Below are positions 53,801 to 59,800 of a stretch of DNA of 64,000 nt, piece by piece (within the stretch, counting starts at the first letter, position 1; each line of letters opens with the position of its first letter). Made by a program: the position numbers. Where the stretch lies: the NCBI GenBank assembly GCA_965242995.1, contig CBDETP010000014.1, positions 69,994-133,993 of the forward strand. Direction: 5' to 3'. Source of the stretch: Coxiellales bacterium (lineage in GTDB: Bacteria; Pseudomonadota; Gammaproteobacteria; CBDETP01).

Positions 53801-56800
53801 CAAGCCTCAATCAATTCGCTGGTTTTGCTGGGTTTTTTTACCAAAGACCAATAAGCTCAATACAGCCCATAATAAACCAAAAACCATCATGCTTATGATC
53901 TATCTTTGTCTGATTTCACTGACAATATACCTGTATACTGGCCTTTTATTTTCAGCTTTAGCCATAGGTCAACTATTAATTGCAGGGCTATTGAGCTCGA
54001 TATTCAGTTTACCCTGTATTCTTTTTCACCTTTACCAACAGCAAAAAGCCAGCAATTAATGCTGGCTTTTTATTAAGGAAAATCAAGCCGGCTTACTTCA
54101 TCCTATTTGCTGCAGCATCATCTCTTTTCTTCTTCTCTATACCATATCGCGCGATTTTCTCTTGCGTTCCCTGAGGTGAGCCTGCTCCTGATGCTTTACC
54201 CATCAAGCCCGCCGCACCACTAGCAGCTGACTGTATTGAACCCTGCATTTTCTGGGCTGTTTGCTCTGCTGCATCGTTTGATTGCGGACCACCAATCCAC
54301 TTTAAAATATCGACATACATAGTAATTGGTTTAAATGCAACCGTTAGCATATTAAAAACAAAAATAGCATAGATAATCATGAGCAATGGCAGCGTAATTA
54401 AATACTGTGTATCACCACCCGTCATACCATTTGCTGATGAAGCCATACCATTACTGTAGTTTTTGACCACAGCCTCCATAACTTGCTGCACACTATTACC
54501 AGAAAGGGGTGTAGAAGAGAAACCACTAGACATTGTGTTTATGATATGAGCAAAACCTAGGTTCAATAAGCCAAAGGCTGCCCATGACACCGCAATGGCT
54601 GCTAAAAACCCGATAACAAGCAATACTGGTCGCAAAAACACGCCCAATAACAGCATTAGTGCCTGCTCACTTTTGCCTAAAAAGTCATGGCCCTCTGGGT
54701 GAGTTAGCCCTAAACAAACCAAGGGTGCTGCAACCATCGCCTCGAGCACAGCAACAAACCACCCCACCGCTGCAAACATATAAACAAAGAATGGATAAAG
54801 CGGCACATAGAAAGTTAGCATCGCCCCTACAGCAATTAACCCAGTTGCAATGGTCTGAATAATCGGCTTCATCCACTCAACTCCTATATTCCACATTGTG
54901 GCCTCAGGAGATTCAGCTGAACACATACCAAAAAACATGGACGCTGCAGTTACCAACGCCATTGTGGCAAATAAGCCAATCTTTCCTGCTGACAAACAAG
55001 CCTCACCTACTCGCTGAACCACCACAATAGGATGTAACGACAAGCCATCTCCCTGGACATCAAATTGCATTGGAATAGTGTTCATTGCCATAAGTAGGGG
55101 TGCTGATATAAGCGGCGCAAACAGACCACCCATGATCGTTGTGCCAGCAGCATCGGCGCTCCAACCTGCCATTGCGTCATTAAGCTTTATTTCAGCTTGA
55201 GAATTAATGGAGCCGTCAAAATCATATGCTTGTGCTTGTGGGCCAGCTCCAGCCACTTGTTTGCTTGCCGCTGTTTCGGCATTAGTGATGGTTGTAGAAT
55301 CAAGAATATGGTCGCCCGTGATGCCGGTCGCGGTTATTGAAGGGTTATAATCGGCATTAACAGTATCACTATAAGATAAATTCACAATATCCCAAAAATA
55401 ACTACCCGCCATAATCCAACCCTGCCCGATAGGATTTTTATCCGTAGTCTCATCACCCCATGAGCCTCCTTGTTCACCACTGTAACTTGGCTGGTCGTCA
55501 CTTGTTAACCCAGCTGTTTTCAAATCTGTCTTGTAAAGACTTTTAGTCGTTGTATTAGTGATAAAATCACGATTTATATTATACGCAGTTACAAATGCTT
55601 GAGTCACAGCTGCCTGCTTATCAGATGATCCTTGTCCTGTCATTGCAGCAATTTTACATGTGCCTTTTCCTTTACCTGCTGCCAAACATTGATCAACTTG
55701 TATTGAGCTTGAAAGATCAGTAATAACCGAGCGAACCATTTGCCCTTTAAGATCTGAATTATCACCACTCCAACTAAGTGATCCACAGCCTCCGCCAAAC
55801 GTAGCAGAGCCTGCTTTAGAGTCTCCCGTGTAGTGAACGTAATACTGAGAGTTTACTCCATTTTCATTGGCGGGACCTGCTGCATAATATTTACTATACA
55901 TACAAGATAAGCCCTGATGGGCACTTTTAATTAAATTACTCAAATCACTTTTTTGGCCGCTAAAAGTAGCCACTGGATCACTTGTTGTATCACCCGTTTG
56001 AGGCGTGTATAACTGACCGCCTAAAGCCGTCATCTTGCTCAACTGCATGTATCTCCATACCGTACGTCAGCTAGGCGTGTACCTTCCACAACGACTTTCA
56101 TCACAACACTCTGGTAGGTTGAATACCCTGTGCCTATAGGCATTAATAATGCAATAGCAAGTGGGACACGAATAACCGTAAACAACATATTTTTACCTTG
56201 CTGCTGACCTAAAAATTGCCCCGATTGAACCCCACTCATCACAGCTGACAATACAGACCAACCAACAGTAATGGATGCTACTAAAACAACCGCGCATATT
56301 AAACCATACTTAAACATAGACAGCCATAACAAGCACCTGAGCCATGACTGCCTGTCAATGAACACCTTCCACACTACCAAAAATTCGAGCTAGCAAAGGT
56401 GAACTGATAAATCCGTTTTATCGTGTGACAGCATTAAAAATATCATGATGAAGAGTGAGAAATCGTACTCGAGTCTGACACCTGCCGCGAAAACCGAAGA
56501 TGACACCAACAACGTAACCAACATTAATATAAAACGAATCATAATTATTCACCCTTCCCATTTGTTTGCTTAACAAAATCTAATAAATCTTTAAATGTAC
56601 ACCTTAGTGATCTTCTTCTGATTTTCACCACTGAAAAAATTTCACGTAGAAAAAAGGCCACCATCACAAAAGTTAGGGAGGCCCCCATTAAGAATGAAAA
56701 TAAACTCGCTGAAAAAACCAGAAATAACGTGTATGAAAAAGCAAGCAATGCAACACATCCATAAATCTTAGACATTAATACAAGCTGCTTCTCTTTTTGT

Positions 56801-59800
56801 TGTAAATCATCTTCTGTAATATTTAACCGAGCCATCGCTGCATCAAAATTTTTATCCAAAGCGACTTTTGACGCATTGTTGAACTTTTGTTAAATCCTTC
56901 CAAGAATTCTTAATAGCTATTAGCGTCTCTTTCTAACAATTCACTGCCCATAAACCGTTTAACATCATAGGCTTTTCTAGCACCTTTTTTAATTCTATCG
57001 ACTAACCACATAATATGACCTCGCTCATGATTTACAATACGTATTTACTGAAGATTTACCTGAGTAACAACTATTGTATCATGCCAACCTTAAGGCAATC
57101 TTAAGAGAACAAAGAAATTTTACTTTTTTTTTCATACCTTTATATAGGCAAAGCCATACAGCTGGCCGCACACATTCTTTTATCATAATAATCAACAGGT
57201 TAGGTAAATCCCTCGTGGATTTGCCGCGATAAACACCAAACAAAATAAAAAATAAAATGTCCGCTTCACTGCATTTTTGTAAAAAAAATACAGCTTTATC
57301 CGTCTTTTTTCGATCTCTTAAGATTACCTTAAGGTTTTTAGTAAAAAACCAGGGTATACTGATCAACATTATATCAATCTTTTTAAAAGGATTGACTTAT
57401 TCACTCACTAAATAAAAGGTAGTAATCATGCCCGATTTTAGCCATGAGGCTGGCCACAAGTTTTGGAAAAACTATCAAGATAAATTGATTTATCGTGTTG
57501 TCGCGTTTATGGAAGGCGTTGAAGACTGGACGGTTGATGGCGATGCCAGTCTTGAAGAGTCCTTAAAAAAACTGGAAGCGGCTTTAGACAATGTTGATAA
57601 CATTGATCTACAGCAAGAAGACAACATGATTGAGGCCATTAGCTTTCTTAAAATGGGCCGACTACTCAATATTTTAATGAGCATGGACATGGCCTATCCA
57701 GGGTCTGCAGCAAAAGTACTTATGCGTGCTGAAGAAATCAGCTCCTCTAATCAAGACACTGCTGGCTTACTACTAAAGCGTAATGCTGCCTTTGAGCGTC
57801 TACGTCTTTTGGGCCGAATGTTCTCTGAAGAAAGAATCAAGCTCGTGACCCAAGCATTGGAAGGAGCCGAGTAAACATGAAAAAAATCATTGCATCATTA
57901 ATCATCTCCACATGTGTCGCTGCGTTTTCATCAGCGATGGCAGATAATAATGCAGCAACGGAATCTCATGATTATCAAGCAATGTACCAAACACTAAAAA
58001 GCGGCTCAGATATTAATAAATTCACCAGCGATGACTATCTCAGTTGTTCAACTCATTCCTGCTGCAGCTCAATGTTCAGCTCAAGCAAAGATGTTGCTGA
58101 TTGTAACAAGCTTTTTGCTAATGGCGCACTACAAAGCGCCCTTTCTAACACGGACAACAATACAACACCTGCCACTAACACTAGTGAAAAACCTTTTATC
58201 TATATAGCACCTATTAAGTTAAAGTCTACCGACGAGCAAAGCTCTGCTTTAACAGAGAATAATGAAACACAAAACAACTCAACTGAAAAAAATGCAGAGA
58301 ACACCGACTCAGCACAAGATGTCACTGTTCCAGTCATTAACAATAAAGAATCATCAACCTACGTTGCACCTATCGGCGCAGCGCCAACAAACAAAAAACA
58401 ATCGACTGATGATAAAAAGAATTCGACTAAACAAAAAAACAACATTTGGTTTTAACTAAGAGGAACTATCATGAAAAAACAGCTAATTTTATCAACCATC
58501 ATTTCTGCATCACTGGCGTTTTCAGCATCAAGCTTTGCTGACACCCCTAGCGATAAACAGAAGCCAAGTCCAGATCCGTCAAGCTCACTTAATGCATTCG
58601 CTGACAAAATATCTGACTCAATTAATGATGCTATTAAACCATTAACTACTGCGGTGAACCTGATCTATAGCACATACACCACAGATTCTAATCAGCCAAA
58701 TACTATGCAAAAACCCGCACGCATGAACAATCAGCAAATATTATCGAGTCAGAATGCTTCTAATAAATCAAGTGAAGCAGCAAGCTTGAATTTTGTGGCC
58801 TCACAACTCAATCAGTTCCCAAGCAACTTTCATGCTAAGGACCCGAACTACACACCTCCAGCAACAAACAAAAGCAGCAATAGTGATGGATCTTATGTTT
58901 TTAATGATTTTGAAACACCTGCATCTCTGTCAGAAAGCTTAGACAAACTAACCGCATCTGATGATATCCAGTTAAGCGACAATGCAAACAATGCAATCTC
59001 TATATTTGGCTCAAAAGACAATAAAACAGCAAAAAACAATAATGAATCCATGAGTTTTGGGGGCTTAATTAATCCAAGCCAGTATGAAACAAAAAGTAAT
59101 ATTCAAGCAGCTCAGAATTTTATTGCCTTTGACAGCCAAAGTTACAAAAACCTGGCTGACAGTATTGATTTGGAAAAGCTAGGCAAACTGGAATCAAATG
59201 GAAAAGATGGAAAAGATGCTGTACAGGCCATCTTCAGCAGCGATAATTTTAAAGATTATAAGCGCGATTATCGCTCAATAATTTCACAACAGTCAGTGGG
59301 TTACAATAATTTAAGCTACCTTGCTGCACAACGTGCCGGCTCACCAAGTGTTCTGGCTTCAGAAGAAGCAAAAATCCATGCCCGCATTGGCACACTAAAT
59401 TGGTATAGCAATGTTCAAGCTGCCTCCTCAGCAACAGTGCAACGAAGAACGCTAATTGTTTTAGCAGAAATTGAAAATGAAATGCACCAAAATCAACTTA
59501 TAAATCAAAGAATGCTGGCAACACTATCAACAATGGAACTACAAAACACACAAACAGCAAAAATGCAACTAGCGGCTTCTGCTGGGAAATTAAATCGAGA
59601 AATTAGCAACTGCTCTGAAAACCCATCAGCCAACTGTGCAGCAGTCACTCCAGCTCTACCAACAGCCCCTGTGGGAAAAAATAAATAGAGGCAATCAATC
59701 TTCTATTTTGAGGCCTTCCTTAAAATAGAAGATTTTTTTTTATTAAGAAAAAATATTATTTAGCCGAACTCTAACCTTATCTTTTAGGATAAGCACAAAA

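Follow-up and report, generated by a model that had tools for sequence, protein, structure and literature searches.

Clustered frameshifts in the icmV-dotA operon of a Coxiella-type Dot/Icm cluster from a distant Coxiellaceae lineage

Introduction

The Dot/Icm (type IVB) systems of Coxiella burnetii and Legionella pneumophila include dotA and icmV, both of which are essential secretion-system genes. In these organisms icmV-dotA is divergent from icmW, a small open reading frame (ORF) and icmX, and PmrA-type tandem boxes are located upstream of icmV-dotA; Coxiella also has a duplicated icmL, the group dotD-dotC-dotB and the gene order icmT-S-(FIR)-Q-P-O-N-L-L-K-E-G-(candidate icmC). All of these features recur in a 64,000-nt stretch of contig CBDETP010000014.1 (GenBank assembly GCA_965242995.1, positions 69,994 to 133,993, forward strand), referred to below as the window, which carries a Coxiella-type Dot/Icm cluster. 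In contrast to C. burnetii and L. pneumophila, however, both icmV and dotA are out of frame in the window.

Most of the 25 core Dot/Icm genes are disrupted or lost in the Coxiella-like endosymbionts of ticks (CLEOA, CLEOmar, CRt and AB428), in which insertion sequence (IS) elements are also abundant (bioRxiv 10.1101/2022.10.26.513839). The window resembles these genomes in combining frameshifted secretion-system genes with intact metabolism genes, but differs from them in that icmV and dotA are the only core genes hit while 18 core ORFs are intact and constrained, in that no IS element was seen, and in that its lineage is remote (DotB identity to GTDB representatives not above 73%). Erosion of the endosymbiont type, with many core genes lost and IS elements proliferating, was not found within the window. 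An earlier note made from the sequence alone had drawn a parallel with these endosymbionts on the ground that decay was concentrated in virulence genes; the likeness is weak, as the 18 core ORFs (16.3 kb) are free of lesions where approximately 33 frameshifts would be expected at the rate seen in the icmV-dotA operon.

Results

Both dotA and icmV are indeed out of frame as sequenced: the ORFs described in the earlier note are present, and profile and tblastn alignments confirm the frameshifts. One frameshift per gene was an underestimate, since alignment with the DotA and IcmV of relatives placed four in dotA and two in icmV, none of them shared by any relative (Table 1). Because of these six indels of 1-2 nt within 860 bp, icmV and dotA as deposited cannot, as judged from their reading frames, make full-length IcmV or DotA.

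The 113-aa ORF previously taken as the DotA N-terminus does not contain the true start, which is the ATG at 56542, upstream of that ORF and directly after the icmV stop codon, where a signal peptide (MIRFILMLV...) begins. This start was confirmed by a Tara Oceans contig (L002) that extends 27 identical bases into dotA. A hidden Markov model (HMM) built from 107 full-length DotA homologues was aligned to the DNA with a frameshift-aware profile-to-DNA aligner, and across several penalty settings the same four frameshifts, each -1 or +2, were recovered, the third of them placed to within approximately 15 nt. The starting frame of the upstream cluster of three meets an in-frame TAG at 56392-56390. 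Profile columns 150-812, used as the control, contained zero frameshifts, and the last 1,953 nt (approximately 650 codons) of dotA are clean. When nine full-length DotA homologues were aligned by tblastn, each ran in one frame as far as 56066 and in a second frame from 56057 onward, with no residues lost; residues 63-147 of homologue P0046, for example, align to 56323-56066 in one frame and residues 150-801 to the other frame from 56057. The junction is therefore a frameshift inside one gene.

The family models give the same picture. The 113-aa piece matches the NCBIfam DotA models (NF033886/TIGR04346) at profile positions 36-110 and the 651-aa piece at 134/388-789, while the 107-sequence HMM matches the pieces at 1-145 and 244-791. 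Both the conserved N-terminal block and the C-terminal multi-transmembrane (multi-TM) domain of the DotA/TraY family are thus present, but a single DotA ORF of approximately 780-1050 aa is not, the largest ORF being 651 aa with a score of 224.8 bits against the NF033886 cut-off of 500. Within the shifted region, the out-of-frame peptide LLARIFGSVEGV ranks top of 127,930 six-frame 12-mers of the window for the DotA motif YLsqiFGtVgnv (18.5 bits; next 14.1), and LTGSHGS ranks among the best 6 of 127,960 window peptides for the columns that follow this motif; both are exactly collinear with the dotA flanks, and agreement of this order exceeds what chance would give. In a crude segment-shuffle test of the dynamic programming (DP) score of dotA, 26 of 400 shuffles reached the observed value. 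The reconstructed DotA is approximately 813 aa long and matches L. pneumophila DotA (PDB 9ngy, a sequence absent from the 107-sequence HMM) over residues 29-167 and 732-1006 with an E value of 1e-43, across the junctions. Its identity to the nearest relatives is approximately 30% (27-33% over the full length, up to 42% over part). The reconstructed N-terminus has no homologue at E <= 0.001; a scan of genome contigs with the 651-aa DotA gave no match and one with DotB only the relatives at 73% or below, and scans of metagenome contigs with the IcmV alignment and with the reconstructed DotA also gave no match. No contig of a close relative was found that spans the 5' part of dotA.

The icmV gene begins at an ATG preceded by a GAGG Shine-Dalgarno sequence. 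Only its 104-aa ORF matches the IcmV model NF038219 (profile 52-141 of 149; 58 bits against a cut-off of 100), so that icmV as sequenced does not give an end-to-end IcmV of approximately 150 aa, while its position directly upstream of dotA is conserved. The first frameshift was located at DNA alignment column 152, where the window reads GCTAATAGCT and the Tara orthologue GCTGA-AGCT, and profile DP likewise placed a +1 at 56918. The second falls, together with an in-frame 3-nt insertion, in a variable Lys-rich linker and was placed to within approximately 15 nt; since this linker is poorly conserved, its exact position is uncertain. At the DNA level the window differs from the Tara orthologue by +1, +1 and +3 nt. 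An independent profile of 12 Coxiellaceae IcmV proteins encoded upstream of dotA returned the same two +1 shifts, scoring 105 bits with the shifts and 19 bits without them, and after removal of 2 nt its full 152 columns align gap-free. The frame-corrected product has 154 aa and aligns over its whole length with the intact 153-aa Tara orthologue (P0123) at 79-80% identity. No frameshift was found in the 315-nt 3' part of icmV.

Constraint on these and the neighbouring sequences was evident. Frame-corrected icmV compared with the Tara orthologue gave dS 0.60, dN 0.098 and an omega (dN/dS) of 0.16, icmW compared with its 97%-identical relative gave a dN/dS of 0.03, and both are under strong purifying selection. 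Over the approximately 55 bases aligned ahead of the start codon, the icmV leader differs from that of the orthologue at only 2 positions. There is no nonsense mutation on the ancestral reading path of icmV-dotA, and no IS-like ORF or other sign of genome decay was noticed within the window. Of the features of an evolutionary pseudogene, frame disruption relative to intact orthologues is found, but the marks of relaxed selection (raised dN/dS, spread lesions, a decaying promoter) are not, with the divergence of DotA somewhat high.

The split of dotA is, among the sequences compared, unique to the window, since every Coxiellaceae relative examined has a single full-length DotA. In every fetched Coxiellaceae locus that contains the gene completely, dotA is one ORF (HMM positions 1 to approximately 800); orthologues genuinely split at the same site, which the earlier note had allowed for, were not encountered. 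Among the remaining DotA homologues of the protein collection, all but a few fragments truncated by contig ends span the full length too. An intact icmV (142-156 aa) precedes dotA in 13 of the 14 loci examined; the upstream ORF recovered from the remaining locus (L028) has only 83 aa. It was also observed that DotA-family ORFs are amplified upstream of dotB in three loci of Comchoanobacterales and related metagenome-assembled genomes (MAGs), with three to four in each (L033, L035 and L037; approximately 900-1300 aa where complete, two being cut by the locus edge), and that a further locus (L022) has two.

Across the window, at least 18 frameshifts were counted in five genes totalling 10 kb, namely icmV, dotA, ank2, a DUF4116-repeat gene and a gene with a tandem array of 84-nt repeats; the 25 housekeeping ORFs (25.2 kb), the 18 core Dot/Icm ORFs (16.3 kb) and three other ORFs (5.5 kb) contain none. 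The earlier note had described the other dot/icm and the housekeeping ORFs as intact, which holds, but intactness does not extend to the three putative effector genes, which contain repeats and at least 12 frameshifts. The six icmV-dotA frameshifts lie within 56918-56064 (approximately 860 bases), three of them within 76 nt, and all are in the first 950 nt of the 2,919-nt operon (P ~0.001, post-hoc; the clustering statistics were calculated after the pattern had been seen). Forty-six window ORFs terminate in ordinary stop codons (table 11).

Table 1. Coordinates of the Dot/Icm genes, putative effector genes, PmrA-type boxes and frameshifts in the window
Feature	Position	Strand	Details
icmV, interrupted	56545..57011	-	33-aa ORF 56910-57011 and 104-aa ORF 56545-56859; coding path in three frames
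icmV frameshift 1	56917..56919	-	one extra nucleotide relative to the Tara orthologue
icmV frameshift 2	56861..56889	-	+1 nt between 56889 and 56875; in-frame 3-nt insertion at ~56863-56861
dotA, interrupted	54093..56542	-	50-aa, 113-aa and 651-aa ORF fragments
dotA 113-aa fragment	56039-56380	-	overlaps the 651-aa fragment by 10 nt
dotA 651-aa fragment	54093-56048	-	overlaps the 113-aa fragment by 10 nt
dotA frameshift cluster (three)	56322..56398	-	~56398/7, 56360/59 and 56338-56322; net change a multiple of 3
dotA frameshift 4	56064..56065	-	GAC-GT-ACG, -1 or +2; profile placement 56065; junction described in the earlier note
PmrA-type tandem box, predicted, upstream of icmV	57089..57105	-	TTAAGNNNNNNTTAAG; TTAAG-N6-TTAAG
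PmrA-type box, predicted, second	57317-57333		icmV-icmW intergenic, upstream of icmW (start 57428)
Dot/Icm block 1	30.5-46.2 kb		candidate icmC (no family match), icmG, icmE, icmK, icmL x2, icmN, icmO, icmP, icmQ, small FIR-like ORF, putative icmS (position only), icmT, dotD, dotC, dotB
Dot/Icm block 2	54.1-59.7 kb		dotA and icmV, divergent from icmW, a 192-aa ORF and icmX
Putative effector genes	between the two blocks		DUF4116-repeat gene and two ankyrin-repeat genes (ank1, ank2)
ank2, ankyrin-repeat gene	50030..52139	-	five frame changes in the 5' ~500 nt; repeat units of 100, 98 and 98 nt against 99
DUF4116-repeat gene	46313..47330	-	4-5 frame segments, four frame changes; unit spacings of 74, 86, 76 and 76 nt against 75
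84-nt-repeat gene	17987..21911	-	tandem array, 25 units counted over 18563-20495; ORFs of 637, 387 and 182 aa

Among the frameshifted putative effector genes, ank2 has a clean 546-aa 3' ORF. The three frameshifts of the 84-nt-repeat gene (+1 at ~20005-20010, A4 to A3 at ~18851 and G3 to G4 at ~18528) were called on the basis of unit spacings that include 85 and 83 nt and of one G-run expansion, and the indel-to-substitution ratio between its higher-order repeat copies is not extreme. This gene is low in GC (approximately 32%), encodes 28-aa repeats and has a higher-order periodicity of 336 nt. Its 637-aa ORF was without orthologues among 1.84 billion representative proteins; the best non-self match, at 21% identity, covers part of a protein of 3,829 aa. 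The DUF4116 gene, ank1 and ank2 have a common upstream element (47348-48110, 49764-50029 and 52146-52502) with copies that are 60-90% identical, the longest approximately 760 bp, and that contains a PmrA-type box. This element may represent either a promoter or leader module that has been duplicated or a mobile effector-gene cassette of small size.

The putative PmrA-regulated promoter of icmV shows tandem direct repeats with the 11-bp periodicity of its class, the tandem TTAAT-type box of Legionella and Coxiella, and its box was also found as a repeat family (D10). A pattern search for TTAAG-N6-TTAAG returned 31 matches in the window against 11.3 expected. Predicted boxes are located upstream of the frameshifted icmV, ank2, DUF4116 gene and 84-nt-repeat gene, and also upstream of the intact icmW, dotC, icmK, icmG, ank1 and a 927-aa gene. 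Upstream of the 84-nt-repeat gene, five head-to-tail 11-bp units of the TTAAGGTTTTA type (22016-22075) form overlapping TTAAG-N6-TTAAG boxes; this putative array is unusually dense.

Full-profile family matches were obtained for 14 of the 18 core Dot/Icm ORFs, and IcmX, adjoining IcmW, matched partially. Three core ORFs had no family match (30559-31152, the putative icmS at 42700-43041, and 57877-58455). Tandem icmL/dotI paralogues (213 and 198 aa) at 36187-37439 correspond to icmL.1/icmL.2 of C. burnetii and support a Coxiella-type architecture. Housekeeping genes fill the rest of the window (dnaX, recR, grxB, sucABCD, sdhABCD, gltA, pyrG, pip, rfaF, recG and others), and wherever a specific family model matched, the match spans essentially the full profile. 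Two YbaB/EbfC-family genes (1354-1788 and 2426-2752) stand on either side of recR, the first of which is longer (144 aa) and matches weakly. Between ank2 and dotA, a 459-aa multi-TM ORF (52680-54059) has a BCCT-transporter match of 25 bits, which is below the Pfam cut-off; it may encode a transporter that has diverged strongly, or else a membrane protein unrelated to such transporters.

The organism is an uncultured Coxiellaceae bacterium of a distant lineage. Among GTDB species representatives the best DotB match was 73%, from uncultured Coxiellaceae MAGs, and DotB of Candidatus Paracoxiella cheracis was 70% identical. Close relatives were found only as contigs of approximately 500 bp (L001-L004). 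One of these, an icmW contig (ENA ERZ27332908), has approximately 97% nucleotide identity and 98% mean column identity; the three icmV contigs (Tara SAMEA2591108, ERZ27286358 and CEOK01206922) have an estimated nucleotide identity of approximately 88%, with 91% mean column identity in the four-sequence alignment. Two related lineages, at approximately 97% and 88% nucleotide identity, are therefore present in marine or other metagenomes. The organism is probably marine, since its close relatives include icmV contigs from Tara Oceans and related assemblies, and the clade seems rare and under-sampled.

Discussion

The alternative posed by the earlier note, either early decay of an otherwise intact type IV secretion system (T4SS) or sequence error, still stands, with the core T4SS and housekeeping genes intact. 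The most likely reading, which we hold with about even confidence, is that the six indels are a patch of local errors, from consensus building or assembly, in a functional operon; we infer this technical origin from lesions whose positions, uniqueness and constrained surroundings are themselves observed. The icmV-dotA pair would then be a canonical PmrA-type-promoted operon, functional in the organism, and low or mixed-strain coverage or an unpolished long-read consensus could have introduced the errors. The 12 frameshifts of the effector genes would reflect the way in which consensus or polishing commonly fails within tandem repeats. Neutral decay of a dead secretion system does not fit, because the core is clean, omega is low, the lesions are clustered and the 3' part of dotA is clean. 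As the shifted segments still encode conserved DotA motif residues, there is no visible substitutional decay alongside the indels, and such an indel-rich, substitution-poor patch in a constrained system looks like consensus error. The lesions are also similar to the indel errors of long-read or hybrid (meta)genome assemblies in that they are mostly of 1-2 nt, occur in patches and tandem repeats with the rest clean, and leave the coding information in shifted frames. The contig crosses tandem arrays in which stretches of 232 and 269 nt recur exactly. This is a hint of long reads, which traverse such arrays more easily and the errors of which are mostly indels. A single low-quality block of 10.6 kb (46.3-56.9 kb) as the sole cause is weakened by the three frameshifts at 18.5-20.0 kb.

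Several points weigh against a technical origin. Unlike typical long-read or hybrid assembly errors, five of the six icmV-dotA junctions are not in homopolymers, the lack of one at the dotA junction having been remarked on in the earlier note; non-homopolymer junctions are atypical of Oxford Nanopore (ONT), HiFi or 454 errors. The 5' region of icmV-dotA is unique sequence within the window, where short-read polishing should consequently have worked. The repeats explain only 12 of the 18 frameshifts, and they account for those 12 under an error model and a real-decay model alike. All 18 fall in T4SS/effector-type genes, with the housekeeping genes spared (for a uniform rate, P ~4e-7), a confinement that would be expected from relaxed selection on the secretion system. 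In addition, the divergence of DotA exceeds what would be expected from the DotB distance, with a bit-score ratio of 0.16 against a typical value of approximately 0.28.

Several of these observations favour a genuine and very recent inactivation of icmV-dotA, which we regard as a serious but somewhat less probable explanation. Dot/Icm function would just have been lost, as an early step toward the condition of Coxiella-like endosymbionts, and the effector genes would be starting to decay, fastest where repeats promote slippage, with the core not yet struck. The confinement of frameshifts to five genes of T4SS/effector type with PmrA-type boxes upstream, against zero in 25 housekeeping ORFs, the mostly non-homopolymeric junctions, the intact genes of all relatives and the unusual divergence of DotA agree with it, and the Dot/Icm pseudogenes of Coxiella-like endosymbionts provide a precedent (bioRxiv 10.1101/2022.10.26.513839). 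It has to reconcile six lesions in 860 bp of non-repetitive DNA, however, with none in 16.3 kb of equally dispensable core (approximately 33 expected) and none in the 3' 1,953 nt of dotA. The omega values of icmW and corrected icmV, the conserved icmV leader, the ancestral reading path free of nonsense mutations and the lack of IS elements or other decay signs in the window also speak against it. Real lesions may instead coexist with a working T4SS, either through a second intact icmV-dotA copy or because N-terminally truncated products suffice, the candidates being a 651-aa DotA initiated at the 56048 ATG, with GGAG located four nt before it, and an IcmV of 96-104 aa. This would reconcile the lesions with an intact, constrained core; DotA paralogues do occur in Legionellales (three to four in L033, L035 and L037, two in L022), and the long 3' ORFs are lesion-free, ank2 being likewise damaged 5' and clean 3'. 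It is nevertheless improbable: no paralogue is visible in the 64-kb window, a truncated DotA would be without both its signal peptide and the N-terminal block conserved in 107 of 107 homologues, and no Shine-Dalgarno sequence precedes the internal icmV starts. An icmV omega of 0.16 further argues that the copy in the window was the functional one until recently.

A related scenario, to which as a whole we give little credence, is that the lesions are real and stem from a mutational or selective process acting locally, in promoter-proximal sequence, on the PmrA-type-promoted genes icmV, dotA, ank2 and the DUF4116 gene. Each of these would carry multiple frameshifts in its first approximately 500 nt, leaving the 3' parts and the core machine intact; either effector export would be shut off by repeated hits to icmV-dotA, or DotA and IcmV would remain in use in N-terminally truncated form. 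Programmed recoding, by ribosomal frameshifting or transcript slippage, can practically be discounted as a route to full-length proteins. Applying the six shifts does give a path without a stop codon, and the three N-terminal dotA shifts sum to a multiple of 3, but six sites in both directions would be needed and no orthologue uses frameshifting. Programmed frameshifting was rejected, as no shared slippery heptamer, homopolymer or stop-adjacent shifty codon was found.

The icmV-dotA frameshifts should not yet be read as a loss of the virulence machinery, since their distribution resembles slow decay less than it does a local fault in sequencing or assembly. If they are an artefact, which is slightly the more likely case, an automated pseudogene count would wrongly score the T4SS and three effector genes as defective. 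The corrected models (a dotA start at 56542, an IcmV of 154 aa and a DotA of approximately 813 aa) are useful for annotation either way. Coxiella-like endosymbionts already provide cases of Dot/Icm pseudogenisation, and real lesions would add a new and very early example from a distant lineage. The window would then show a Coxiellaceae lineage, not from ticks and probably marine, that has only just begun to lose Dot/Icm, with the damage at DotA and IcmV and not machine-wide; such a case would bear on the transition from intracellular parasite to benign symbiont.

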